IMG/VR virus record: IMGVR_UViG_3300020281_000001
Coordinates: 1,442 to 65,441 of that record
Reading direction: 5' to 3' (one strand)
Length of the DNA stretch: 64,000 nucleotides
DNA from: a virus
Taxonomy: Duplodnaviria > Caudoviricetes
The notes beneath the pieces were generated by a model, which saw only the letters and a list, made by a program, of their open reading frames with translations, was not told the origin of the DNA and made no database searches. Below are positions 4,874 to 58,126 of the stretch, piece by piece. Position 1 is the stretch's first letter. Each line of letters begins with the position of its first letter. Position numbers and translations under genes: made by a program.

Positions 4874-6436
4874 ATGTCAGACTTAATAGTCAAAAATCTT
4901 AATTTTGGGCAGGTAGCTCAAAGTCAAGTATTTAAAGGAATTGATAAACTAACACAAGCCGTTAGCTCTACTTTAGGAGCTAGCGGTAAATGTGTGTTAC
5001 TTGAAGATGATCAAGGTAATCCTATAATAACAAAAGATGGTGTTACTGTTGCTAATTCAATAACTTTATTAGATCCAGTAGAAAATATGGGCGCAAGGCT
5101 TTTAAAAGAAGCTGCACGTAAAACAGTAAATGAAGCTGGTGATGGAACAACAACAGCCACCGTTTTAGCTCACGCTATATTAAAAGAAGCAGAAAATTTA
5201 GAAATAAATACTAGAGAATTAAAACAAGGTATAAATTCTGCTCTTATAAAAGTATTAAAATATTTAGAAAAAAATACTTTACCTGTAAAAGGTGATATGA
5301 TAGATCAAATAGCTACTATATCTACAAATAATGAACCTAAACTTGGTAAAATAATTGGTGATGCTTTTAGATCTGTTGGTCAAACAGGTGTTGTAATGAT
5401 GGAACATTCATCACTTCCTGAAACAAATGTTGATTTAGTTGATGGTGTTCAATATGATAAAGGTTTAACAAACCAACATTTTATTACAAATAAAGCTAAA
5501 AAAACTGCAGAGTTAGAAAAACCTGCTGTTTTACTTATAGAATCACCAGTTGAAAATATCAGACAAATACAGTCTGTATTAGAACATGTTATAAAAAAGA
5601 ACATACCTTTATTAATTATTGCTGATGTAGAAGCGCCTGTCATGGCAACACTTGCTATGAACAAAACAAAAGGTAATATTAAAGTTAATATTATTAATGC
5701 GCCTACATTTGGTGTTAATAAACGTGAAACATTAGATGATTTAGCTATGCTTACTGGAGCTACTGTCATCAATGAAGATCTTGGAGATGATATGGATTTA
5801 ATTCAACCTGAATTTTTAGGTAGTTGTTTAAAATCTATAACTAATGAAAAAGATACCATAATACAAGTTGGTGAACCAAATGAAGCTGTAACAAAAGCTA
5901 TTGAAGCAGTAAAAAAAGAACTCGCTAATAAACCTAATCCAGCACATGTAATAAGATTAGAAAAAAGATTAGCAAGGCTATCAGCTAAAATTGCAGTAGT
6001 TAAAGTTGGTGCAAACTCTGATATAGAGTTAAAAGAAAAAGCAGATAGAATAGAAGACGCAATATGTGCTACAAAAGCAGCTATTAAAGAAGGTATTGTA
6101 CCTGGTGGTGGTATTGCTTTGCTAAATGCTTCAGAAGAAATTAAAACAAAAAATATAGCTGAACAAGTACTTTTAAATGCTATAACATATCCTTTTAAAG
6201 TTATTTTAAATAATGCTGGTATTGATTGTAAAAGTTTACCTGAATTAATTGGTAAAATACAAGGTAGAGGATTAAATGTAGTTACAGGTGAAAATGTAGA
6301 TATGATTAAAGCTGGAATTATAGACCCATTACTTGTAACAAAAAGTGCTTTAACAAATGCTGTATCAGTAGCAACAACAATATTATCAACCGATTGTGTA
6401 ATTAATAACATAAGAACTAATGAAAGCAATAGGTAA
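4874..6436 (+). CDS. groEL: Phage chaperonin GroEL (Cpn60)
   Basis: [49 protein letters not shown] motifs; 520 aa, no GGM tail. Confidence 0.97.
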
Positions 6437-6680
6437 TAATATAATTATTAAACCAGAAAAAGTAACTACTGAAAAAACAAAAGGTGGTTTATTAATAGTT
6501 GAAAAAGACAGAGAAGATTTAAGATATAGAAAAGCTCAAATTGTTTCTGTTAGTGATGAAATTAAAGTATTAAAAAAAGACAATATAATATATTATGATA
6601 AAGCTGCTGGTCATGGTATAGAGTTTAATAAAGAAAAATTTATTGTTATTAAGTTACAAGATGTTGTAGTTGTATTATGA
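6420..6680 (+). CDS. groES: Co-chaperonin GroES (Cpn10)
   Basis: [12 protein letters not shown]...KTKGGLLI mobile loop; overlaps the groEL end. Confidence 0.9.
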   Translation: MKAIGNNIIIKPEKVTTEKTKGGLLIVEKDREDLRYRKAQIVSVSDEIKVLKKDNIIYYDKAAGHGIEFNKEKFIVIKLQDVVVVL

Positions 6681-10545: not shown

Positions 10546-10926
10546 ATGTGGAAATTACTACTAGGTCTTCTTAAAGGAGGTGATGGTAGAAAATCTGTCG
10601 CTGGAGGTTTAGCTTGGGAAATAAGAGAAGCCATTAAAGGTAAAGAACTTGATCCAGAAAAATTAATAGAATTACAAACAAAAATCAATATGGTTGAAGC
10701 CTCGCATAGAACTTTATTTGTTGCGGGGTGGCGACCTTTTGTAGGTTGGATATGTGGTTTTGCTTTAGCGTATAATTTTGTTATTCGTGATTTATTTATA
10801 TGGATTACAAAATCAACAGACGTACCACCACCACTACAAATGGAACATTTAATGACTGTACTATTAGGTATGTTAGGATTAGGTGGACTTAGAACTTATG
10901 AAAAAATAAAAGACAAAGTAAAATAA
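10546..10926 (+). CDS. Holin (3TM/DUF3154-like family)
   Basis: FVAGWRPFVGWICG...LLGMLGLGGLRTYEK signature. Confidence 0.85.
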   Translation: MWKLLLGLLKGGDGRKSVAGGLAWEIREAIKGKELDPEKLIELQTKINMVEASHRTLFVAGWRPFVGWICGFALAYNFVIRDLFIWITKSTDVPPPLQMEHLMTVLLGMLGLGGLRTYEKIKDKVK

Positions 10927-10928
10927 AA

Positions 10929-11540
10929 ATGGGATATTATCAAAATAATTTAAGTGATTTTGCAACCGGTGGAATAGAGTTGCAAGAATCTAAAACACTA
11001 AAAGCAGCTGCATTAAGTAATTTATCTACTAATACTATAGCTGGTTTACCAGCAAGTAGTAGCGCTATTGTATATGCCACTGGAGGTACATATCCTGGAG
11101 CTGCTAGTCTTGAAACAGTAAGTATACCAAGAGGTGTTACTTTAGGCGCAACGTTTTTAGTTGCTACAGATGGAGCTGGTGCGGTAACTAGTGTTACTGT
11201 TGCAAACCAAGGACCAAATGTTGGTGGTTCTGGACAAACAATAGAATTTAGTTTAGCCTCATTAAATTTAGCTTTTGGTTCAACAGGAATAACAGGAGCT
11301 CTTACAGCTACTATTGCTGGAGGTGATTTAGAAAGACCAAGCGGTATATTTAATGAGAAAAAACCTGCTTTATATGTAGGAGGTACAGGTGATATAAAAT
11401 TAACGTTAGCGTCTGACTCACAACCTATAATAGTAAAAAGTATAGCAGCAAGCACAATTTTACCCTTTGCTGTATCAAGGGTATATAATTTAACAAGTGA
11501 TACAGAAACAACAGCAACAGAAATTATAGCGCTGTTATAA
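10929..11540 (+). CDS. Virion structural protein
   Basis: LYVGGTGDIKLTL...ILPFAVSRV...TTATEIIAL module with an inserted G/A/T-rich domain. Confidence 0.65.
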   Translation: MGYYQNNLSDFATGGIELQESKTLKAAALSNLSTNTIAGLPASSSAIVYATGGTYPGAASLETVSIPRGVTLGATFLVATDGAGAVTSVTVANQGPNVGGSGQTIEFSLASLNLAFGSTGITGALTATIAGGDLERPSGIFNEKKPALYVGGTGDIKLTLASDSQPIIVKSIAASTILPFAVSRVYNLTSDTETTATEIIALL

Positions 11541-11835: not shown

Positions 11836-12055
11836 TGTTATAAGAAAAATCAGTATTGGATCTGATTATAAAAATGACGCTATGCACTATGCTGTAGGCC
11901 AACAAGTATATGGTGGTCATACTATTTCACATATATTATGTGATGAAGAAAGTCAATCATATAATATTTTTATAAAAAAAGACGATGAGGTATTGCCTTG
12001 GAAAAAATTTAATTCTCAAATGGCAGTATCTGTTGAATATGATTTAGAATATTAA
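11828..12055 (+). CDS. Hypothetical protein
   Basis: GTG start, coupled to both neighbours. Confidence 0.7.
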   Translation: MSNVIRKISIGSDYKNDAMHYAVGQQVYGGHTISHILCDEESQSYNIFIKKDDEVLPWKKFNSQMAVSVEYDLEY

Positions 12056-12657
12056 TGAATAGTATATATCAATTTATTATAAAACCTGTAGGTGAAAGAT
12101 ATAATAATAAATTAAAAATAAACAATACAGAACTTATACTTAATTCAAGCATATCAAATCATAAATTTATAAATAGACACGCTGAAGTAGTTTCTGTTCC
12201 TCTTGCTTATAAAACAAACATAAAAAAGGGTGACACAATTATAGTACATCATAATTTATTTAGAAGATATTATAATTTAAAAGGCAAATCAGTAAATAGC
12301 ACTAAGTTTTTTAAGGACGATTTATATTTTGCACACCCATCTCAAGTTTATATGTATTATAAAAAAGAGTGGAAAACAAACGCTGATTATTGTTTTGTAA
12401 AACCAGTATTAGAAAAAGATACATATAAAAATACTAAATTAGTAAAAAATACTGGAATATTAAAATATACAAATAGCACATTAGAAGCCCTTAAAATTAA
12501 TACAGGAGATCTCGTTGGGTTTAAAAGTAATAGAGAGTTTGAGTTTATTATAGATAATGAACTTTTATATTGTATGGAATCAAATGATATTTTATTTAAA
12601 TATGGAAACAAACAAAACAAAAAAACGTATAATCCAAGCTGGGCAAAAAGCAGTTGA
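12055..12657 (+). CDS. Tandem GroES-like (double Cpn10) protein
   Basis: Two repeats of FIIKP/FVKP...KKGD/NTGD.V; C-terminal EFIIDNELLYCMESNDIL resembles the GroES end. Confidence 0.6.
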   Translation: MNSIYQFIIKPVGERYNNKLKINNTELILNSSISNHKFINRHAEVVSVPLAYKTNIKKGDTIIVHHNLFRRYYNLKGKSVNSTKFFKDDLYFAHPSQVYMYYKKEWKTNADYCFVKPVLEKDTYKNTKLVKNTGILKYTNSTLEALKINTGDLVGFKSNREFEFIIDNELLYCMESNDILFKYGNKQNKKTYNPSWAKSS

Positions 12658-12874
12658 AGAATTAATAAAAGTAGCTAAAGAAAAAATTGTAGATTCAGAA
12701 GATGATGTATCAGCTGATAGATTAAAAAACGCAGCTGCTACAAAAAAACTAGCTATATTTGATGCTTTTGAAATATTATCAAGAATTGAAGAAGAAGAAA
12801 ATATAATTAATTCTATTAATAAAAACACTAAAGCTTCTAGTTTTGGAGGCTTTGCTGAAGGAAGATCAAGATAA
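12602..12874 (+). CDS. Probable terminase small subunit
   Basis: Helical 90-aa protein directly upstream of and coupled to terL; likely start METNKTK. Confidence 0.55.
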   Translation: METNKTKKRIIQAGQKAVEELIKVAKEKIVDSEDDVSADRLKNAAATKKLAIFDAFEILSRIEEEENIINSINKNTKASSFGGFAEGRSR

Positions 12875-15096
12875 TGTATACAAACACTTTATATAAAATT
12901 TTACCTGATCATATAAAACCTAAAATTATAAAAAATAATAATAGGTATAAAAAATGGAAACCAGGTTATAACAAAGAACATGATGTTGTTGTTATAAGTA
13001 AAACAGGTAAAATAGGTGAGATATATGAAGTACAAAATTTAAAAATAGCTTTACCTTTAGTTGAAAAAGCTTATAAAAGATCTAAAAATAAAACAGATCA
13101 ATACTGGGAAATATTTGAATACCCTAAAGAATTATCAAAACTTAAAACAGTTTTTGATTGGAATCAAACATCATTAGATTTTAAAAACACTTGGTATGAC
13201 TATATTGATGAAGAATTTAAAAGACGTGAAGAAGGCTTTTGTTTCTATAACAATGGTGTTCCTACTTATATTACTGGTTCTCATTATATGTACTTGCAGT
13301 GGACAAAAATTGATGTTGGGAACGCAGAGTTTAGAGAAGCCAACAGAATTTTCTTTATCTTCTGGGAGGCATGTAAGTTGGATACCAGGTCATATGGATT
13401 GTGCTATCTCAAGAATAGAAGATCCGGATTTTCATTTATGGCTTCGTCAGAATTGGTACATCAGGCAACAATATCAAGTGATTCACGGTATGGGATACTT
13501 TCAAAGACTGGAGCTGATGCAAAGAAAATGTTTACAGACAAAGTTGTACCAATATCTGTCAACTACCCATTTTTCTTTAAACCCATTCAGGACGGTATGG
13601 ATCGCCCCAAAACTGAATTGGCATACAGGGTACCGGCCTCAAAATTCACAAGGCGAAAGATTGATCAGAACGAACGTCCCGAGGAACTCGTTGGGCTCGA
13701 CACCACGATCGACTGGAAGAACACCGGTGATAACTCGTACGACGGGGAGAAACTCAAATTACTCGCCCATGATGAATCGGGTAAATGGGAGAGACCAGAC
13801 AACATCCTCAACAACTGGAGGGTCACGAAGACGACATTAAGATTAGGTAGTAGAATTATAGGTAGATGTATGATGGGTTCTACATCTAATGCTTTAGATA
13901 AAGGAGGTAATAATTTTAAAAAACTGTATGATGCATCAGATGTCACAAAAAGAAACCGCAACGGACAGACTAATTCAGGATTATATAGTTTGTTCATACC
14001 TATGGAATGGAATTACGAAGGATACCTTAACGCTTATGGGTTTCCTGTATTCGAAACTCCAAAAAAACCAGTCAAAAGTATTGATGGATCCAACATTGAC
14101 ATCGGTGTTATCTCACACTGGGAAAATGAAGTTGAAGGATTAAAAAACGATCAAGATGGTTTAAACGAATTTTATCGTCAGTTTCCACGAACAGAAAAAC
14201 ATGCTTTTAGAGATGAAGCAAAACAATCTTTATTTAATCTAACTAAAATTTATGAACAAATTGATTATAATGAAGATTTAAAAAACACTAATGTAATTAC
14301 AAAAGGTAATTTTCAATGGGAAAATGGAATTAAAGATACTAGAGTTATATTTATACCTAATAATAATGGTAGGTTTTTAATTTCATGGGTACCAAACAGT
14401 GATTTACAAAATAAATATATTATAAAAAACGGTATAAAATATCCAGGAAATGATCATACAGGCGCATTTGGTTGTGATCCATATGATATTTCAGGAACTG
14501 TTGATGGTAGAGGATCTAAAGCTTCTTTACACGGTTTAACTAAGTTTTCAATGGAAGATGTACCACCTAATTTATTTTTTTTAGAATATATTGCAAGGCC
14601 TCAAACAGCGGAAATATTTTTTGAAGATGTTTTAATGGCTTTAGTTTTTTATGGTATGCCATTACTTGCAGAAAATAATAAACCTAGATTATTATATTAT
14701 TTAAAAAGAAGAGGTTATAGAGGATATTCTATGAATCGTCCTGATAAAGTATATAATAAATTATCTATTACCGAAAGAGAAATAGGTGGTATACCTAATT
14801 CAAGTGAAGATATAAAACAAGCACATGCTGCTGCAATAGAAGACTATATTGAAAATTTTATTGGATTTAACAATGAAAGATATGGTGATATGTATTTTCA
14901 AAGAACACTAGAAGATTGGGCTAAGTTTAATATGAATAATAGAACTAAACATGATGCTTCAATAAGTTCTGGTTTAGCTATTATGGCTTGTAATAAAAAT
15001 AGATACACGCCTACAGTAAAAAGAACTATAAATAATTTACCTTTAGACTTTAAAAAGTATAATAATAAAGGAGTAACTTCAAAAATACTAAATTAA
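12874..15096 (+). CDS. terL: Terminase large subunit
   Basis: Walker A-like KNRRSGFS, Walker B LLAHDESGKW, GSTSN coupling motif, nuclease FGCDPYD, LAENN, HDASIS. Confidence 0.93.
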   Translation: MYTNTLYKILPDHIKPKIIKNNNRYKKWKPGYNKEHDVVVISKTGKIGEIYEVQNLKIALPLVEKAYKRSKNKTDQYWEIFEYPKELSKLKTVFDWNQTSLDFKNTWYDYIDEEFKRREEGFCFYNNGVPTYITGSHYMYLQWTKIDVGNAEFREANRIFFIFWEACKLDTRSYGLCYLKNRRSGFSFMASSELVHQATISSDSRYGILSKTGADAKKMFTDKVVPISVNYPFFFKPIQDGMDRPKTELAYRVPASKFTRRKIDQNERPEELVGLDTTIDWKNTGDNSYDGEKLKLLAHDESGKWERPDNILNNWRVTKTTLRLGSRIIGRCMMGSTSNALDKGGNNFKKLYDASDVTKRNRNGQTNSGLYSLFIPMEWNYEGYLNAYGFPVFETPKKPVKSIDGSNIDIGVISHWENEVEGLKNDQDGLNEFYRQFPRTEKHAFRDEAKQSLFNLTKIYEQIDYNEDLKNTNVITKGNFQWENGIKDTRVIFIPNNNGRFLISWVPNSDLQNKYIIKNGIKYPGNDHTGAFGCDPYDISGTVDGRGSKASLHGLTKFSMEDVPPNLFFLEYIARPQTAEIFFEDVLMALVFYGMPLLAENNKPRLLYYLKRRGYRGYSMNRPDKVYNKLSITEREIGGIPNSSEDIKQAHAAAIEDYIENFIGFNNERYGDMYFQRTLEDWAKFNMNNRTKHDASISSGLAIMACNKNRYTPTVKRTINNLPLDFKKYNNKGVTSKILN
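13196..13840 (+). CDS. Nested +1-frame ORF in terL: predicted lipoprotein
   Basis: 214 open codons; signal-peptide-like MKNLKDVKKAFVSITMVFLLILLVLIICTC; local GC about 52% (13621-13800). Confidence 0.6.
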   Translation: MTILMKNLKDVKKAFVSITMVFLLILLVLIICTCSGQKLMLGTQSLEKPTEFSLSSGRHVSWIPGHMDCAISRIEDPDFHLWLRQNWYIRQQYQVIHGMGYFQRLELMQRKCLQTKLYQYLSTTHFSLNPFRTVWIAPKLNWHTGYRPQNSQGERLIRTNVPRNSLGSTPRSTGRTPVITRTTGRNSNYSPMMNRVNGRDQTTSSTTGGSRRRH

Positions 15097-39535: not shown

Positions 39536-39949
39536 ATGATAAAAAACGGAAGACAAAAAGACATAAGACATTACGTAGGTGCAATAGGTATATTTATATT
39601 TGTTGTAGGTATATTAACATTTTTATCGTTTCATGAAATACCTACAGTAAATAAAGATATTATTGTATCTATTATAGGTATGATCGTCGGTAGCTTGTCC
39701 GTTGTAATTATGACAGTTATAGGACGAAACCCAGATGAAGTTAACGAACTTAAAAAAGCTAACGAAGGTTTAACTTCTAAAGTTGAGCATTTAGTACAAC
39801 AAAAAGATGAGTTAGAAAAAATGCTTATAACAGTACAAACTAATATAATAGATCAATTAACTATGTTAGGATCAAATGCTTTTGATACTATATATCATCC
39901 GAAAAAATGTGTATGTGGTAAACAAAGCTGTAAATGTGAAGGAGAATAA
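39536..39949 (+). CDS. Membrane protein: two TM helices, coiled coil, Cys-rich tail; possible lysis accessory
   Basis: YVGAIGIFIFVVGILTFL and IIVSIIGMIVGSLSVVIMTVIG, then heptad repeats. Confidence 0.65.
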   Translation: MIKNGRQKDIRHYVGAIGIFIFVVGILTFLSFHEIPTVNKDIIVSIIGMIVGSLSVVIMTVIGRNPDEVNELKKANEGLTSKVEHLVQQKDELEKMLITVQTNIIDQLTMLGSNAFDTIYHPKKCVCGKQSCKCEGE

Positions 39950-39951
39950 TT

Positions 39952-40236
39952 ATGGCATATAAAAATCCAATAAATATTACAGAAAAAGCTTATGAAAAAT
40001 CTAATAGAAAGATGCGTAGTGAGCATAAAAAAGATACTGGTAGAACATTAGGTACTAGACAAACTAGTGGTAAAGGTAAACGTAGAGTTTCTTTTGCTTG
40101 TAGATTTGCAGGTATGAAAGCTAGTATGACAGATAAAAGTGGTGGACCGAGCAAATATGCTATGGCATTAAAAAAATGGGGTTTTGCTAATAGAAGTGAA
40201 GCTCGTAGTTTTTGTAATAAAAATAAAGAAAAATAA
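39952..40236 (+). CDS. Small basic protein
   Basis: RRVSFACRFAGM...ALKKWG motif seen in phage basic proteins. Confidence 0.7.
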   Translation: MAYKNPINITEKAYEKSNRKMRSEHKKDTGRTLGTRQTSGKGKRRVSFACRFAGMKASMTDKSGGPSKYAMALKKWGFANRSEARSFCNKNKEK

Positions 40237-40237
40237 A

Positions 40238-40381
40238 ATGGGAAAAATAAGTGGACCTTGTAAAGCAGCGGCTAAAAGAAAATTTAAAGTTTGGCCAAGT
40301 GCGTATGCTTCTGGATGGGGTGTAAGATGTACTAAAGCTGGTGGGCCTGGTAAAATGGGTAAATCAAAAAAGAAAAAGTAA
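40238..40381 (+). CDS. Small basic protein (WPSAYASG motif)
   Basis: Likely start MGKISGPC at 40238. Confidence 0.7.
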   Translation: MGKISGPCKAAAKRKFKVWPSAYASGWGVRCTKAGGPGKMGKSKKKK

Positions 40382-40500
40382 TGGATAAAAATTTAAAATC
40401 AGTTGTAGCTGAATTAAAAAAAGCATCACGTATGCATGCTGCTCAAGCAAAAAAAATTGAAAAGCATATTAAAGCTATGCAAAAATCATATAAAAAATAA
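40381..40500 (+). CDS. 39-aa basic helical peptide; not in the ORF track
   Basis: MDKNLKSVVAELKKASRMHAAQAKKIEKHIKAMQKSYKK; TAATG coupling at both ends. Confidence 0.65.
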   Translation: MDKNLKSVVAELKKASRMHAAQAKKIEKHIKAMQKSYKK

Positions 40501-40592
40501 TGGGATATAAAAGTGCTGCTCAACGAAAAGCTGTACACGCTAAGAAAGCCGAGCAAAAAAAGAAAAAGAAAAGAAAAAGAAAAAGAAAATAA
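40500..40592 (+). CDS. 30-aa highly basic peptide; not in the ORF track
   Basis: MGYKSAAQRKAVHAKKAEQKKKKKRKRKRK; TAATG coupling. Confidence 0.65.
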   Translation: MGYKSAAQRKAVHAKKAEQKKKKKRKRKRK

Positions 40593-40594
40593 TC

Positions 40595-40963
40595 ATGGCA
40601 TATAACCAACCGTCTTCACCTTTTACTTGTTGGGAAGGATACGAAAGAGTACCAGGTACGTCTGAGTTTTCTAAAGGTAGTTGTAGAAAAATATCTTCTA
40701 GTAATTCACCGGCTACAAAAAAACAAAAAGGTGGTGGTACAACTAAAACTTGTTTGCCTTACTCTAAAATTAAAAACATGAGTAAAGAACAAAGACAAAA
40801 GCTTATTAATGCTAAAAAAGCATCAGGAGCAAAAGGTAAATATAAAAGATCATCTAAAACAAATGTTAAAGGCGCAAGAAAAAAAGGTGCTACATTAAGA
40901 GATTGGTTTGAAAAAGAAGACTGGAGAAGAGTAGATGATCCTAGTAAAAAATGTGGAGAATGA
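40595..40963 (+). CDS. Basic hypothetical protein
   Basis: CWEGYERV...KGSC and LRDWFEKEDW motifs. Confidence 0.7.
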   Translation: MAYNQPSSPFTCWEGYERVPGTSEFSKGSCRKISSSNSPATKKQKGGGTTKTCLPYSKIKNMSKEQRQKLINAKKASGAKGKYKRSSKTNVKGARKKGATLRDWFEKEDWRRVDDPSKKCGE

Positions 40964-41313
40964 AATATTTTACAATAACAGAGTTTGATTCACCAGATGT
41001 AGTTGGTAGTGGTAAATTAATGAATGAAGATTTTTTAGAAAAATTAGATTTAGTAAGAGCTAAGTTTGATAAACCTATAAAAATAAACAGTGGTGTAAGA
41101 ACAGAAGAACATAATAAAAAAGTAGGAGGAAAATATAATTCTTCACATCTAACAGGTTATGCAGCTGATTTACATTGTAATAATTCTAAAGATAGATATG
41201 AATTGTTAATATGTTTATTAGATGTAGGTTTCAATAGAATAGGTATAGGTAATACCTTTATACATGTAGATTCAGATCCGGAAAAAACAAAAAATGTGAT
41301 TTGGACATATTAA
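40960..41313 (+). CDS. Endolysin, peptidase M15A family
   Basis: INSGVRTEEHNKKVGG..SSHLTGYAADL...FIHVD; likely start MKYFTITEFD. Confidence 0.88.
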   Translation: MKYFTITEFDSPDVVGSGKLMNEDFLEKLDLVRAKFDKPIKINSGVRTEEHNKKVGGKYNSSHLTGYAADLHCNNSKDRYELLICLLDVGFNRIGIGNTFIHVDSDPEKTKNVIWTY

Positions 41314-41399: not shown

Positions 41400-43118
41400 T
41401 TAACCATCACAAGCTAAACAGTTTTCATCCATAGCAGAAGCAGCAATATCACCTCTAAGAACTGATTCAGTTCTCATATAATATAAAGTTTTAATACCTT
41501 TTTTCCATGCATCAAAATGTACTTTATTAATCCATTTAGGTGTTGCTTCAGAAGGAAAAGCTAAGTTTAAAGATACAGATTGATCAACATACTGTTGTCT
41601 TAGTCCTGCTTGATTAATTAATTCTAATTGATTTATTTCTTTAAATGTTTTAAAAACTTCTTTAGCCGATACGCCGTTAGTAAAGACAATAGAATCAAGC
41701 TCATCAATACCTTGGACTGAACCACCATCTTCCAAAATTTTATCCCAAACTTCACTTGTATTTAATTTATGTTTTCTTAATAACTTTATTAATGTAGGGT
41801 TTTTTCTTATAAATGTACCTTTAGCTGATTGTTCTGTAAAAACATTAGCTGCCCATGGTTCAACACCGGGTGATATATTACCAGATAATTTAGAATTACT
41901 TACTGTTGGGGCTATAGCTCTAAGATGAGTATTTCGCATACCAGTTCCTACACACCATAAAGGTTCTCCATAAGTTTCAGCTAAGTTTCTACTTGCTCGA
42001 TCAGATTCTATTTTTATTTGACTAAATATTTTTCTAGTTTCATACTGTGCTAACAAACCTTCAAAAGGTATATTTTTTTCTTGTAAATATGTATGCCAAC
42101 CTAATACACCTAAACCTAAAGCTCTACCTTTTTCAGCAGATCTTACAGAGTTTTCAAAACCTATTTTACCTTTAGCTTTTTGTATAAACTCTTCTAATAC
42201 ACCATCTAAAAACCATATTGAATCATATATAATATTAGTGTTTTTCCATTCATCATATTTTGCTAAGTTTAAACTAGATAAACAACAAACAAAACTATGA
42301 GATTCATCTGTTTGTAATACTATTTCACTACATATATTAGTCATATGTACTTTTAAACTGTTTTTCTTATATGCTTCTGGATTAGCTTTGTTTGTATTTC
42401 CTTTAAATAGGATATATGGCTCTCCAGTTGCTTTACGTTTTTGGAGTAACTTACTCCATTTATTTCTTGCTTGTTTATCTCCTTGTTCAAGTCTTCGCAT
42501 AAACTTATCCCCAATGACAGCACACTGGTGCAAGTTAAGAGATTGTCTATTGACATCTCCTTTAGGTTCTCTAATTTCCAACCACTCGAGGAAATCACTA
42601 TGTTCAATATTGATATTAACGCTTGCAGCTCCTCTTCTAACGGAGCCTTGATTGGTTGCGAGTATAGTTGAGTCGTATATTTTGCAAAAAGGGACAACAC
42701 CGTCAGAAGTTCCATTACCTGTAATTTTAGATCCGGCAGGGCGTATCATATTAATGCCTATACCTACACCGCCGCCGTGTTTTGCAAGTAGCATCATTTC
42801 TAAATTTTTCTTTCCTATATCATTTATACTATCAGCAACATCAATACCAAAGCAGCTTATTGGTAAACCTCTATCTGTACCTGTGTTTGATAATACAGGT
42901 GAAGCTAAACAAAGCCAACCGTTCCATATATATTCAAAAAATCTATCAGCTAGCTCTGGTTTATATAAACGTCTTGCTACTGTTTTAGCTACACGCATAT
43001 AAGCATCACGCGGTGATTCACCATTAAATAAATATCCTCCTGATATTGTTTGTTTGTATATATCATTATTACCCCAAGAAGGATAGTCTTCACCCTTTAC
43101 CCAATTATTATTCCACAT
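41400..43118 (-). CDS. nrdA: Ribonucleotide reductase class I alpha subunit (short, no obvious ATP cone)
   Basis: PISCF, GGGVG, TNICSEI, CCLSSLNL, AIAPTVSNS, KTLYY, C-terminal CLAC. Confidence 0.95.
   Translation of the reverse strand: MWNNNWVKGEDYPSWGNNDIYKQTISGGYLFNGESPRDAYMRVAKTVARRLYKPELADRFFEYIWNGWLCLASPVLSNTGTDRGLPISCFGIDVADSINDIGKKNLEMMLLAKHGGGVGIGINMIRPAGSKITGNGTSDGVVPFCKIYDSTILATNQGSVRRGAASVNINIEHSDFLEWLEIREPKGDVNRQSLNLHQCAVIGDKFMRRLEQGDKQARNKWSKLLQKRKATGEPYILFKGNTNKANPEAYKKNSLKVHMTNICSEIVLQTDESHSFVCCLSSLNLAKYDEWKNTNIIYDSIWFLDGVLEEFIQKAKGKIGFENSVRSAEKGRALGLGVLGWHTYLQEKNIPFEGLLAQYETRKIFSQIKIESDRASRNLAETYGEPLWCVGTGMRNTHLRAIAPTVSNSKLSGNISPGVEPWAANVFTEQSAKGTFIRKNPTLIKLLRKHKLNTSEVWDKILEDGGSVQGIDELDSIVFTNGVSAKEVFKTFKEINQLELINQAGLRQQYVDQSVSLNLAFPSEATPKWINKVHFDAWKKGIKTLYYMRTESVLRGDIAASAMDENCLACDG
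42353..42715 (-). CDS. Possible nested +1-frame ORF in nrdA
   Basis: 120 open codons on the same strand, local GC rise, amphipathic/coiled-coil product. Confidence 0.35.
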   Translation of the reverse strand: MELLTVLSLFAKYTTQLYSQPIKAPLEEELQALISILNIVISSSGWKLENLKEMSIDNLLTCTSVLSLGISLCEDLNKEINKQEINGVSYSKNVKQLESHISYLKEIQTKLIQKHIRKTV

Positions 43119-44773: not shown

Positions 44774-45095
44774 ATTTCTTTTTACCATATATCATCGAAG
44801 TCTTCACCTTCGTTAGCTTTTGAATAATCCGTTGGTCTAACAGCAAAAAAATCAGTGTGAGTATGACCACCAGTAAGATGATAAAACCAGTCGAGGTTTT
44901 TTGCTCCTGATTTATCATACGTAAAGTGCTCCCGTTCGTCCCTGTAACCGAGCTCCACGAGTTTTTCATTGAGTCTTTTTCTGATAAATTGTTTGAGATC
45001 GTATGATTTAAGGTTTTCAATGTCTCCTTGTTCAAACATTTTGTCGATATATTTTTCTTCTGCTTTAAGCATTGTGTGTGCTGCATTAATAACAT
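44760..45095 (-). CDS. Possible nested +1-frame membrane protein in nrdB
   Basis: 111 open codons; TM helix GFIILLVVILTLIFLLL; GC-rich codons at 44880-45000. Confidence 0.45.
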   Translation of the reverse strand: MLLMQHTQCLKQKKNISTKCLNKETLKTLNHTISNNLSEKDSMKNSWSSVTGTNGSTLRMINQEQKTSTGFIILLVVILTLIFLLLDQRIIQKLTKVKTSMIYGKKKYDKM

Positions 45096-45750
45096 CTTTT
45101 TTACATTTATTTAAAAGAGAATTATCTTCTTGACACATATGTCTAAATAATTTACAACCCATTTTAGAGTGTAATGATTCATCTCTTACAGACCATTTCA
45201 TTTGTTGACCTATACCTTTTAAAAGATTTCTGAGTTGAAAACTATATAAAACAGCAAATGCAGAATAAAGACTAACACCTTCAGCAAAGGCACTAAATAT
45301 TGCAATGCTTCTTGCAATTCCAGTAGTGTTGTTTCCATCATAACTAATTAAATTATCAAAGCGTTCCATAGTTGCTTCGTCTTGTAAAAATGCTTCAAAA
45401 TTTTCAAGACCTAACGTTTCATTTAAATAAGAATAAGCTACAGCATGTATTGTTTCTTGTGATCCAAACATCATAGCCATTTGTTGTATTTCATGTTTAG
45501 GAAACCAACTAACTACTTTCTGTGTCCAATAATCAGATACAGCACACTCTGTTTGTGCAAATCCTAATAATATATTACCTACTAAATTTTTTTCACTTTC
45601 AGTAAGTTTTTCTTGCCAATCTTTTACATCACTCGACATAGGTATTTCTGTGTGTAACCAAAAAGCTTGAGCTTGTTTTAACCACCCATCATTATAATAT
45701 TCAGGGTACTCAAAAGGTTTATAATGTACTCTTGGATCAAATAATCCCAT
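44782..45750 (-). CDS. nrdB: Ribonucleotide reductase class I beta subunit
   Basis: FWLHTEI, ETIHAVAYS (ExxH plus radical Tyr), EGVSLYSAF, RDESLH, DFFAVRPTDY. Confidence 0.95.
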   Translation of the reverse strand: MGLFDPRVHYKPFEYPEYYNDGWLKQAQAFWLHTEIPMSSDVKDWQEKLTESEKNLVGNILLGFAQTECAVSDYWTQKVVSWFPKHEIQQMAMMFGSQETIHAVAYSYLNETLGLENFEAFLQDEATMERFDNLISYDGNNTTGIARSIAIFSAFAEGVSLYSAFAVLYSFQLRNLLKGIGQQMKWSVRDESLHSKMGCKLFRHMCQEDNSLLNKCKKDVINAAHTMLKAEEKYIDKMFEQGDIENLKSYDLKQFIRKRLNEKLVELGYRDEREHFTYDKSGAKNLDWFYHLTGGHTHTDFFAVRPTDYSKANEGEDFDDIW

Positions 45751-45752
45751 AA

Positions 45753-45998
45753 TTATTTTTTTAATTTATATGGACGAGATTTTGGATAACGCTTGTTATC
45801 AAACAAATAATGTCTATATGTTAATCTAACTTGTGGATTAAATGGCCTTAAACCTTGATCAAAATTCATTTGATCTTGATCAAAATCTCCATCGTTATTT
45901 AACGGTATATCATATGTTGCTCTTGCTTCAACAAACATTTGTCCACCCGCACATGAGGTTAATAATGTTATTATACTTAAGTAAAATAATTTTTTCAT
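45753..45998 (-). CDS. Small lipoprotein, possible superinfection-exclusion factor
   Basis: Lipobox MKKLFYLSIITLLTS-C. Confidence 0.7.
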   Translation of the reverse strand: MKKLFYLSIITLLTSCAGGQMFVEARATYDIPLNNDGDFDQDQMNFDQGLRPFNPQVRLTYRHYLFDNKRYPKSRPYKLKK

Positions 45999-56598: not shown

Positions 56599-56757
56599 GA
56601 CTCAACCCAGTTTATTAATGTTCGTTTACAAGCTTCTCTTTGATCTTCATTGAGATCATAGTATCCATCACAATCAAATTTATGTTTTGCAATACCATGT
56701 AATCCTATTTCAATATAAGCTCTATAACTATTTAGATTTTTCAATTGTTCATTCATT

Positions 56758-56997
56758 TTATTTATTTTGAGGCCAATATTCATCTTTCCACTGACCGTTT
56801 TCAATTACAGTCAAACCAAGTTCACTTGCTGCATAATTAATATGCTTGGTAGTTGTTGGGCTTGACGTCATACCTCTTACATTCCATTTAAGTTTGTAAA
56901 GATAGTCTCCAATTATCTCAGCAACGTGTGTATCATATGAATATATGTCGTTACCGATTTGTTTTAAATTTACTTTATATCTATCAAAAGTTTTCAT
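56758..56997 (-). CDS. Early hypothetical protein (YSYxTxVA...SxTTxKHIN family)
   Basis: Motif common among small phage early proteins. Confidence 0.7.
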   Translation of the reverse strand: MKTFDRYKVNLKQIGNDIYSYDTHVAEIIGDYLYKLKWNVRGMTSSPTTTKHINYAASELGLTVIENGQWKDEYWPQNK

Positions 56998-57187
56998 ATT
57001 ATTTATATTTTTGAATTAATTTATTTATATCTTTTAAGTTTGAAAAATGATAATGATATATAATTTCTTTTTTATAATTGAAGACAGTGAAGTCATACAT
57101 TTTAAATTTTGATGAATAATATATTTCAAATGATGTTTGTGTTTTTGGGTTTGAGTTAAAGTAGTTGTTCATGTTTTTATTTTAACA

Positions 57188-57216
57188 TATTATCTACATT
57201 ATAACGTATTTAGTTT
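57188..57216 (-). promoter_or_regulatory. Phage promoter motif copy
   Basis: AAACTAAATACG-N9-AGATAATA. Confidence 0.8.
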
Positions 57217-57224
57217 GTATTGTT

Positions 57225-57599
57225 TTATATTATACCTTTATCTAATTTAACTTGTGTTTCATTTATATTTTCTTCTATCCACTCAAGGACTTCATCTTCA
57301 GGTAAAAACTTATCTAAATCTGATATATGTATTTTAACATCAAATCCAACATCTTGAACTGTTTCAACTATCCTTTTTATTACAGTTTCAAAACTAGGTT
57401 CATAGTAATAAACATCTGTTTCCCAATTAATATTAGTTGTGTCATTTGTTATTATATGCACTTCATAATCATCAGCTGTGTACCATGGCTCAACTGATAG
57501 ATTTCCAGCTCGCCAACCAAAAGATTGATCTGCTATTTGTATTTCATTTACTTCATAAACATCTTCTAGATGCTTTATTAATTTTTCTATATGATCCAT
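57225..57599 (-). CDS. Acidic early hypothetical protein
   Basis: 124 aa, D/E-rich. Confidence 0.7.
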   Translation of the reverse strand: MDHIEKLIKHLEDVYEVNEIQIADQSFGWRAGNLSVEPWYTADDYEVHIITNDTTNINWETDVYYYEPSFETVIKRIVETVQDVGFDVKIHISDLDKFLPEDEVLEWIEENINETQVKLDKGII

Positions 57600-57799
57600 T
57601 ATAATTCTATTTTATTTATTAATTTATATATTTTATCTATTTTTTCTATTAATTCTTCTTTAGTGTATATACTATCAACATATTTTATATCTTGTTTAAG
57701 ACATGATACTTTTGCTAATATTACACCAATTGCCTTACATCTTTCATAATTTTTTTCTGTTTCTTCGTAGTATAATTCTTGATAAATGTTTTTTTTCAT
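57599..57799 (-). CDS. Early hypothetical protein
   Basis: Downstream of a promoter copy; coupled to the next gene. Confidence 0.65.
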   Translation of the reverse strand: MKKNIYQELYYEETEKNYERCKAIGVILAKVSCLKQDIKYVDSIYTKEELIEKIDKIYKLINKIEL

Positions 57800-57816
57800 T
57801 GTGTTTTATTTAATTA

Positions 57817-57845
57817 TATTATCTTGTTATTTAAGTATTTAGTTT
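57817..57845 (-). promoter_or_regulatory. Phage promoter motif copy
   Basis: AAACTAAATACT-N9-AGATAATA. Confidence 0.75.
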
Positions 57846-57848
57846 GTA

Positions 57849-58019
57849 TTATCCTATTAATTCTAATTGTTTTTTAATTTGTTTTAAAGCTTTGTGACTT
57901 GCTTTTGCATTTTGCCAAATTTCATAATCCGCTTTTAATTTCTCTAGTTGGTGTATAGTAACTTTTGCATTTAATAATATGTCTTGTGCTTGTTTTCTAT
58001 TTATTTTTTTAGTTGTCAT
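57849..58019 (-). CDS. 56-aa early protein; not in the ORF track
   Basis: MTTKKINRKQAQDILLNAKVT...; A-rich leader. Confidence 0.55.
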   Translation of the reverse strand: MTTKKINRKQAQDILLNAKVTIHQLEKLKADYEIWQNAKASHKALKQIKKQLELIG

Positions 58020-58126
58020 ATTTTTATTTATTTATTAATTTTAATAATATATCTCTTAAATCTTCTCTATAATCATTAGTGTTTAAATAATCATATAAAT
58101 GTTCAATTAATATTTTTTTATCTTTT

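Follow-up and report, generated by a model that had tools for sequence, protein, structure and literature searches.

A candidate gene for an exported, membrane-tethered protein overprinted on the terminase large subunit gene of uncultured marine phages

Results

Long same-strand overprints are textbook features of tiny single-stranded DNA and RNA phages and of the Rz/Rz1 gene pair. We know of no overprinted gene inside a terminase gene, and a full-text literature search, as judged from abstracts, returned no report of a gene nested in one. Here we report a 214-codon open reading frame (ORF) in the +1 frame of the terminase large subunit gene (terL) of an uncultured virus (Duplodnaviria; Caudoviricetes), IMG/VR record IMGVR_UViG_3300020281_000001. 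The window, i.e. the whole stretch of 64,000 nucleotides that was analysed (positions 1,442 to 65,441 of the record), comprises nearly all of a viral record that is 65,441 bases long and has direct terminal repeats. Near-identical DNA is present in marine and seawater metagenomes from several studies (public sequencing runs).

The terL gene (12874..15096, + strand) encodes a protein of 740 amino acids that matches phrog_6681 over residues 27-737 (E value 1.1e-163) and has neither a Pfam match nor a PDB sequence match; the portal gene starts straight after it at position 15096. The overprinted ORF (13196..13840, + strand; 214 codons plus stop codon) lies exactly where an initial annotation, made from the sequence alone, had placed a 214-codon gene in the +1 frame. 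Its probable start codon is the ATG at 13196..13198 (+ strand; Met1), which is followed by a second ATG at 13208-13210, and the nearest upstream +1 stop is located 6 codons before Met1. In five homologues, a stop immediately precedes the second Met, which places the start at the second Met in these cases.

The stop-free stretch around the ORF (13178-13837) comprises 220 codons, in a +1 frame that has 39 stops per 740 codons (approximately one per 19) and a second-longest open stretch of 81 codons. When the synonymous codons of the entire terL gene were shuffled, none of 20,000 shuffles reached 220 codons (mean 60, maximum 182). Because the codon usage of the region is unusual, shuffling was repeated within the region alone with local codon usage preserved; a mean of 5.96 stops was expected, the single stop observed is that of the ORF itself, and a count as low was reached in 0 of 300 shuffles. 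The other frames of the same region in ORF-bearing homologues contained a mean of 20.5 stops (+2 frame) and of 8.9, 9.4 and 16.1 stops (reverse frames). The depletion of stops is restricted to the +1 frame.

A TerL search returned more than 600 matches to viral contigs, of which the best 80 (74-90% identity) were combined with the window and with MW202828, the nearest GenBank phage (TerL 62% identical), into an alignment of 82 TerL rows. Openness of the +1 frame across terL homologues, which had been named as the first thing to check, was found at the same place in 61 of the 82 rows, 49 of which keep at least 190 codons and 12 of which keep 150-189. The ATG at the column of position 13196 is present in 46 of the 49 rows with a full-length ORF and in 9 of the 21 ORF-less rows. 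Homologues with stops throughout the frame, named in the initial annotation as evidence that would refute a gene, do occur (21 of 82 rows, with 9-17 stops each), and the gene reading was nonetheless kept. A sister lineage (loci L082-L097; TerL 60-69% identical), which was obtained by a second search from a family database protein, has the frame open over 218-237 codons in all 16 loci, three of which are cut by contig ends. The ten sister loci tested by local shuffling contained no stops, versus 4.9-7.0 expected, and 0 of 300 shuffles matched this result in each of them.

A FastTree phylogeny of 112 distinct TerL rows of at least 650 amino acids, from which the overlap columns had been removed and which was rooted on three cultured phages, placed all ORF-bearing rows in one clade of 108 rows (support 98). 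The basal branches of this clade, sister lineage included, are all ORF-bearing; MW202828 and the cultured phages elemo, phi19:3 and phi38:1 fall outside and possess neither the ORF nor a rise in G + C content (GC). The ORF is phylogenetically narrower than its host gene, being confined to the 108-row clade, and one origin followed by later losses and truncations is the simplest history. An estimate of at least eight independent losses, based on a tree of the TerL flanks, was withdrawn, as a tree of the overlap region forces just two state changes.

Public gene callers have occasionally called the ORF (37 clusters at 90% identity, 158 at 50%, all unnamed). No stand-alone relative was detected among 1.84 billion cluster representatives; the 158 matches seem without exception to belong to this family, whether whole or as fragments. 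The database also contains chimeras of TerL and the +1 product (P0033, P0035, P0036, P0037), which switch frame at differing places and, in the case of P0033, in the reversed direction. Because the switch points differ, these chimeras are probably indel errors of metagenome assembly.

The GC of the window is approximately 0.30 and rises to 0.517 at positions 13621-13800, in agreement with the value of about 52% given initially. The third-position GC of terL in the window is 0.445 inside the ORF and 0.125 outside. The most GC-rich stretch (0.50-0.53; 13594..13833, + strand) has G or C at terL third positions, which are the second positions of the overprinted codons. Rows with an open frame have a third-position GC of 0.29-0.54 in the region versus 0.14-0.28 elsewhere in the gene, and the ten sister loci have 0.44-0.50 inside the ORF versus 0.24-0.26 outside; in rows with a closed frame, the regional value equals that of the rest of the gene.

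The ORF ends at 13660-13687 in 12 rows, at 13753 in 16 rows and at 13822-13843 in 33 rows. Third-position GC was therefore compared over the four segments 13196-13690, 13693-13770, 13773-13837 and 13840-14140, with four partial or outgroup rows dropped. The values for these segments were 0.43, 0.68, 0.61 and 0.27 where the ORF ends at 13801 or later (n = 32), 0.44, 0.60, 0.25 and 0.28 where it ends at 13753 (n = 16), 0.33, 0.21, 0.26 and 0.32 where it ends by 13720 (n = 11), and 0.21, 0.20, 0.24 and 0.31 in ORF-less rows (n = 19). Across homologues, the third-position GC of the GC-rich stretch is 0.60-0.68 while the ORF runs through it and 0.20-0.26 after the ORF has ended. The rise stops where the ORF of each homologue stops, which is the most telling result of this analysis. 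Among eight phylogenetically independent pairs whose members differ in ORF state, the GC excess follows the ORF in a mean of 7.3 and opposes it in none. High third-position GC by itself does not open the frame, because two homologues (L055 and L058) have a closed frame with 11-12 stops despite a third-position GC of 0.52.

Each wobble base of terL serves as second base in an overprinted codon. With G or C at this position, codons for Ile, Leu, Met, Lys or Asn become codons for Thr, Ser, Arg, Pro or Gly, and the product is accordingly much less greasy than the same frame in ORF-less alleles. The fraction of Ile, Leu, Val, Phe and Met is 0.26 in the core and 0.17 in the tail of the ORF product, compared with 0.42 and 0.41 in the same frame of ORF-less alleles, and the fraction of Arg is 0.08-0.11 versus 0.03-0.04. 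The N-terminal anchor segment is hydrophobic in ORF-bearing and ORF-less alleles alike.

The predicted product is polar and very basic after its N-terminal segment, with an isoelectric point (pI) of 10.7 and a net charge of +19. On the + strand, its translation begins with a basic stretch with four Lys (residues 1-13; 13196..13234), followed by a hydrophobic segment (residues 14-31; 13235..13288) that we read as a membrane anchor or signal core (Kyte-Doolittle mean 1.97 in the 19-residue window of residues 10-28) and that ends in Cys-Thr-Cys-Ser-Gly (13289..13303, + strand). The central part (residues 37-145; 13304..13630, + strand) has conserved Gly57, Cys69, Trp82, Cys112, Tyr120 and Trp135; at least 90% of the sequences retain Cys69 and Cys112. 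The remainder is a basic tail rich in Arg, Thr, Ser and Gly (residues 146-214; 13631..13837, + strand), whose mean net charge is approximately +4 over residues 146-170 and +7 over residues 171-214 and whose fraction of Ser, Thr, Gly, Asn, Gln and Pro climbs from 0.48 to 0.61; some relatives end their ORF earlier and are without all or part of it. Beyond the anchor Cys, the product continues for a median of 183 residues, 6% of which are Pro. The signal, the motifs SWIPGH and VWIAP and the Arg/Thr/Ser-rich tail of the initial annotation are all present in the translation, with the signal beginning at the second Met (13208). Searches of the product against Pfam, PHROGs, NCBIfam and PADLOC, and a profile search of the PDB, gave no match, and the best value in the ESM Atlas (0.88, for unnamed and 'putative Lipoprotein' clusters) was below the level that counts.

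The signal of the sister lineage consists of a basic start, about 15 hydrophobic residues and Gly-Ser-Cys, and is located 15 residues upstream of the signal in the window. Its lipobox is present in all 16 loci; the Cys is invariant (25 of 25 sequences), and Ser occupies position -1 in at least 90%. Over the TerL residues Tyr-Ile-Thr-Gly-Ser-His-Tyr, which are those of the Cys motif in the window, the +1 sequence of the sister lineage is polar, and its signal is encoded by a different stretch upstream. The location of the hydrophobic signal along TerL thus differs between the two lineages, and two sequence solutions to the same need for export or anchoring are a strong argument that the protein is made and exported.

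Constraint was also visible at individual sites. Third-position columns with at least 85% G or C accounted for 12 of 153 TerL-conserved columns of ORF-bearing rows within the region, whereas the counts were 4 of 275 elsewhere in the gene and, for ORF-less rows, 0 of 142; 8 of the 12 are common to the sister lineage. NTG, read as Cys by the +1 frame, is the terL Leu codon at 13294 in 48 of 48 full-ORF rows and in 3 of 19 ORF-less rows, most of the latter using TTA; the TAC and CAG beside it are retained, contrary to the AT-rich norm. Wobble T at 13261, 13264, 13273 and 13279, which yields Leu in the +1 frame, occurs in 49 of 49 full-ORF rows versus 10-15 of 19 ORF-less rows.

The complete genome of an ORF-less relative (G001; locus L035) contains no second copy of the overprinted family. 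It carries a canonical lipoprotein gene of 145 amino acids, here called LipS, which is located next to the endolysin gene and overlaps by 32 nt the gene of a 96-residue membrane protein with a single helix (L145:8104-8797; G001 68104-68800). Among the four near-complete LipS genomes (G001, G010, G011 and G012), three have LipS overlapping the single-helix gene by approximately 32 nt beside the endolysin gene; in G012, LipS comes directly after the endolysin gene. LipS has a canonical lipobox, is rich in Pro, Tyr and Asn (12% Pro) and mildly basic; it is unnamed in databases and falls into a viral ESM Atlas cluster of 1017 members. LipS and the single-helix gene are a candidate for an unannotated spanin-like pair in reversed gene order.

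A search for LipS yielded 25 loci, two of them on fragments without terL, and no match in the GenBank phage collection. The +1 frame of terL is closed (7-16 stops) in 19 of 19 LipS-bearing records that contain terL. Conversely, LipS was found in 0 of 14 ORF-bearing records (five genomes at least 91% complete, including that of the window, and nine fragments); one of the nine fragments gave a weak match (6e-4) on the low-complexity part, compared with 4e-88 for the positive control. Exactly one of the two, ORF or LipS, is present in nine of nine near-complete genomes (five ORF, four LipS; Fisher p 0.008), and in each of these the ORF or LipS is the sole credible lipoprotein-type ORF common to others. 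Among the 21 rows with a closed frame, G001 was the only one that allowed a check across a near-complete genome, in which LipS is present.

The two proteins are not homologous (hhalign probability 0.1%). Besides their complementary occurrence in genomes, both start with a lipid or membrane tether, have a middle part rich in aromatic residues and end in a polar tail of low complexity; that they share three distant named neighbours in the ESM Atlas is a lead only. They differ in that LipS does not overlap terL and is an ordinary gene beside the endolysin gene, with a canonical lipobox and a mildly basic product.

In a core tree of 11 proteins without TerL from the nine near-complete genomes, there are three switches between ORF and LipS, two of which are forced; the most divergent genome is of the LipS type, and an inner clade comprises two ORF-type genomes (the window and G009) and three LipS-type genomes. 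The TerL flank tree has LipS-bearing records in at least ten separate ORF-less placements, two of them beside MW202828. Import of ORF-less terL from the outgroup was considered and rejected, the identity to the outgroup being 0.772 for ORF-less and 0.763 for ORF-bearing alleles. As the ORF-less alleles are ordinary in-clade TerL, we conclude that the frame decayed in place where LipS is present.

The + strand block of the window comprises genes for a tail fibre, GroEL/GroES-like proteins, a holin-like protein, TerL, the portal, structural proteins and an endolysin/peptidase; replication genes are on the minus strand. The GroEL-like chaperonin (4874-6677) matches phrog_5725 (E value 3e-132), and one of two GroES-like proteins is encoded just upstream of terL (12055-12657). 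The holin-like gene (10546..10923, + strand; phrog_3427 holin, E value 7e-26) belongs to the same late block and, at 2.3 kb upstream, is the lysis-type gene nearest to the ORF. In a second region (39536..41310, + strand), three small basic ORFs accompany a gene for a two-helix membrane protein (39536-39946) and the endolysin/peptidase gene (40951-41310), which is 26 kb from terL; neither a spanin pair nor LipS occurs in this region. The initial impression that no stand-alone spanin is evident held for the entire window, in which no recognisable spanin pair was found. Spanins were annotated in just two of the phage groups in a study of flavobacterial phages (PMC8776804).

In G008, a genome of the sister lineage, a lysis cassette (56750-58032; L156) directly precedes the GroES-like gene and terL. 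Its genes are two holin-like genes (phrog_3427 and phrog_920), one with a weak Rz-like match (phrog_7686, E value 4e-4) approximately 1.4 kb upstream of terL, and one for an endolysin. A complex prediction for residues 33-233 of the sister protein with the periplasmic part of this Rz-like protein gave no answer and is evidence neither way.

A canonical lipoprotein gene of 81 amino acids with the lipobox Leu-Thr-Ser-Cys is located between the ribonucleotide reductase genes in the early module (45753-45998, - strand). It was sought in five near-complete relatives and not found, and is a singleton accessory gene.

The initial annotation had mentioned several +1 overprints in this genome, which was weakly borne out, as the next two outliers are 130 and 109 codons long and lie in ribonucleotide reductase genes. 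The +1 frame is open over 130 codons in the large subunit gene (42356-42745, - strand; z score 14.6 by whole-gene shuffling) and over 109 codons in the small subunit gene (44784-45110, - strand; z score 6.4); the share of local shuffles without a stop in the stretch was 0.006 and 0.11, respectively. At 10929-11540, an antisense frame is open for 199 codons across an entire gene of 203 codons (z score 5.1, equal to the shuffle maximum), which may be accounted for by the Ala/Gly/Thr/Ser-rich product of that gene.

Discussion

We regard it as very likely that 13196-13840 is a real protein-coding gene, although its expression is inferred. Overprinting of the +1 frame would have created it in the ancestor shared by a clade of uncultured marine podophages that infect flavobacteria. 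Transcription would be that of the late genes, and translation would start at the ATG of the ORF within the terL message, because +1 stops are located just upstream and a signal peptide must be N-terminal. The N-terminus of the product would direct it across the cytoplasmic membrane, and the remainder would be periplasmic and tethered to a membrane, in the sister lineage by a canonical lipoprotein signal and in the window by an uncleaved anchor or as an atypical lipoprotein. The exported part would consist of about 110 residues with conserved Cys and Trp, followed by a strongly cationic tail of low complexity. Judged from its sequence, the product is probably exported and membrane-tethered.

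Since the ORF and LipS replace each other in relatives, the same job is indicated for both, and it seems somewhat more probable than otherwise that the product is the functional equivalent of LipS. That a de novo gene born in the ATPase half of the terminase gene displaced the older, unrelated LipS, i.e. non-orthologous displacement by an overprinted gene, is proposed tentatively. The most likely job would be the outer-membrane lysis step, either as an o-spanin or as another outer-membrane disruptor. The spanin-like layout of LipS, the lack of a spanin pair and the position of the G008 cassette upstream of terL make outer-membrane lysis the first choice, albeit one to which we give slightly less than an even chance. 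The product may work like an o-spanin and is not claimed to be one. The function suggested initially, an outer-membrane lysis or exclusion protein, fits the mutual exclusivity of the ORF and LipS but is not proven. We assign a probability of roughly 45% to the reading as a whole, namely an overprinted, exported and tethered protein that does the job of LipS, most likely the outer-membrane step of lysis.

Several results weigh against this reading. With a lipobox pattern based on PROSITE-type rules and applied as a regular expression, the window-type signal did not fit, and 0 of 45 cluster representatives matched, because residue -1 is Ile or Thr. The initial description of the product as lipoprotein-like thus holds in part for the window, whose signal has a basic stretch, 18 hydrophobic residues and Cys-Thr-Cys but no lipobox; the sister lineage has a canonical one. 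AlphaFold2, run with a 99-sequence alignment, predicted an N-terminal helix (residues 2-44) with a predicted local distance difference test (pLDDT) score of 60-76 and no confident fold beyond it (mean pLDDT 41, below 50 in the central part; predicted template modelling score 0.17). A promoter and terminator scan found 6 promoter-like sites versus 8.0 expected, an upstream TAnnTTTG motif of the Bacteroidota type occurs in ORF-bearing and ORF-less rows alike, and no initiation context stands out at the start of the ORF. The association with LipS is perfect in the sample, but few evolutionary events stand behind it, the overlap-region tree forcing only two changes of the ORF state. LipS was detected neither by tblastn in MW202828, which is complete, ORF-less and outside the clade, nor in five ORF-less fragments, which at 25-56% completeness are uninformative on this point. 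Adjacency of LipS to lysis genes is no proof of a role in lysis, the product departs from known o-spanins in length, Pro content and gene position, and an i-spanin-like partner was not found in the window.

To these points must be added the synonymous-rate tests. The suppression of synonymous variation in the overlap that had been predicted initially was not found: pairs of ORF-bearing rows differ at 0.477 of synonymous codons inside the overlap versus 0.382 outside (ratio 1.25), and the four-fold degenerate sites show no enrichment of invariant ones (1 of 44 inside, 3 of 81 outside). The ratios of close pairs range from 0.15 to 2.3 without a trend, and an OLGenie-like dNN/dNS does not separate ORF-bearing (0.98) from ORF-less rows (0.91). 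These tests are blunted by saturation (0.75 differences per site), unequal base composition and recombination, and therefore weigh weakly against strong sequence constraint and not against a gene. Mosaicism within terL is apparent from the synonymous differences inside versus outside the overlap, which are 0.035 versus 0.234 for L072/L078 and 0.243 versus 0.122 for L015/L018. Our conclusion is that the main targets of selection are the openness of the frame, its composition, the anchor and a few residues, a pattern that fits a young and largely disordered protein.

The unsuppressed synonymous variation, the strong mosaicism (L072/L078) and the lack of a confident fold would also be expected if there were no gene and the open frame were a by-product of a GC-rich terL segment, arising by recombination with GC-richer relatives or from a constraint on DNA or RNA. 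We consider this improbable, as shuffles with local codons still predict 5-7 stops and the depletion affects the +1 frame only, third-position GC returns to baseline at the end of each ORF, and GC-rich homologues without the ORF carry 11-12 stops. The start ATG, together with the Cys codon and the hydrophobic-core Leu codons, is moreover conserved, and neither the canonical signal peptide of the sister lineage nor the exclusivity with LipS would be accounted for. Programmed ribosomal frameshifting from terL, which would yield a fusion of the TerL N-terminus with the +1 product instead of a free protein, would explain the chimeras in the protein database (P0033, P0035, P0036 and P0037) and the stop-free stretches of some homologues that extend at least 40 codons upstream of the Met. 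It is the most improbable of the explanations considered: the switch points of the chimeras differ, with P0033 reversed, so that they look like assembly indels, and +1 stops precede the Met by 3-6 codons in both the window and the sister lineage and stand directly before the second Met in five homologues. A signal peptide behind about 100 TerL residues would not work.

If the gene is real, its product could still be a basic protein anchored to the membrane on the cytoplasmic side and binding DNA or the packaging machinery, as might be suggested by its pI of 10.7, its charge of +19 and its Arg-rich tail, by its location within the gene of the packaging motor and by the AlphaFold2 model, which shows no more than an N-terminal helix. 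This location of the protein is improbable, since the canonical lipoprotein signal of the sister lineage (Cys in 25 of 25 sequences) implies export, since the ORF and the canonical lipoprotein LipS are mutually exclusive, and since positive charges before the hydrophobic segment favour an N-in, C-out topology, as expected from the positive-inside rule. Less easily set aside, though on the whole unlikely, is an exported and tethered protein with a job other than lysis, such as a block to superinfection, masking of a receptor or a change of the cell surface, with LipS as its analogue. All gene-level evidence applies equally to such a protein; it would be an accessory gene, lost or truncated in sublineages and variable in tail length, with the patchy, recombining distribution typical of exclusion genes, and the product is long and not Pro-rich, unlike known o-spanins, with no i-spanin partner in the window. 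Exclusion genes usually act early, whereas this gene is located in the late structural block without a separate promoter signal. LipS, in addition, is always in the lysis cassette, with a spanin-like overlap of approximately 32 nt in three of four near-complete LipS genomes, and the lysis cassette of G008 abuts terL. Receptor-binding phage lipoproteins are known (PMC9586334; 10.64898/2026.03.26.714494), which speaks for the job other than lysis.

Comparison with known systems bears on the preferred reading of a tethered protein in outer-membrane lysis. The embedded o-spanin lipoprotein genes of phages lambda (Rz1 in Rz) and T7 (gene 18.7 in 18.5) are likewise envelope lipoprotein-type genes nested wholly in the +1 frame of a late phage gene, and the present product has in common with theirs conserved Cys in the predicted periplasmic part and the lack of a separate spanin gene in the phage. 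In contrast to these systems, the host gene is the terminase large subunit gene and not that of the i-spanin partner, about 183 residues with 6% Pro follow the anchor compared with a few tens, and the signal of the window is not a canonical lipobox. O-spanins have a short Pro-rich periplasmic part with Cys for disulfide-linked dimers, so that the product departs from them in the defining feature of gene position and, its conserved Cys69 and Cys112 notwithstanding, apparently also in that of a short Pro-rich periplasmic part, which is a further point against an o-spanin proper. The overprinted lysis proteins of small phages, E inside D of phiX174 and L of MS2, also have one hydrophobic segment and a basic remainder and were born by overprinting an essential structural or assembly gene. 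They differ in that they act alone without holin and endolysin, whereas this phage has holin-like and endolysin genes, and the present product is two to three times longer.

By masking the receptor, the lipoprotein Llp of phage T5 prevents the loss of progeny on cell debris. Llp is described as a receptor-blocking lipoprotein of superinfection exclusion that is made shortly after infection (PMC9586334; 10.64898/2026.03.26.714494). Like the candidate reported here, it is a phage-encoded envelope lipoprotein and an accessory gene, but it is a stand-alone gene, unlike a late-block ORF inside terL whose substitute is located in the lysis cassette. The 'disruptin' encoded by gene 28 of phage phiKT is a cationic peptide that disrupts the outer membrane in a phage without spanins (10.1101/515445). 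It resembles the present case in being a strongly cationic candidate in a phage without a recognisable spanin; it differs in being described as similar to an antimicrobial peptide, whereas the predicted product reported here has 214 residues with an N-terminal anchor.

What is new here is the presence of two signal types, the third-position GC that follows the length of the ORF, and the mutual exclusion of ORF and LipS. The hundreds of environmental genomes in which the ORF is full-length, truncated or decayed constitute a natural experiment. They raise the question of how an essential motor gene tolerates the recoding of approximately 45% of its wobble positions over 640 nt, and the question of what is selected in a young, probably disordered protein: the frame, the composition, the anchor or a few residues. 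They also raise the question of how the outer-membrane step of lysis is accomplished in flavobacterial phages, where spanins are rarely found. As gene callers mostly miss the overprinted gene, the lysis and envelope functions of marine phages are under-annotated. If true, the displacement of LipS by a gene born in the terminase gene would indicate which factor, missing so far, acts in outer-membrane lysis in a large group of marine Bacteroidota phages without a recognisable spanin.

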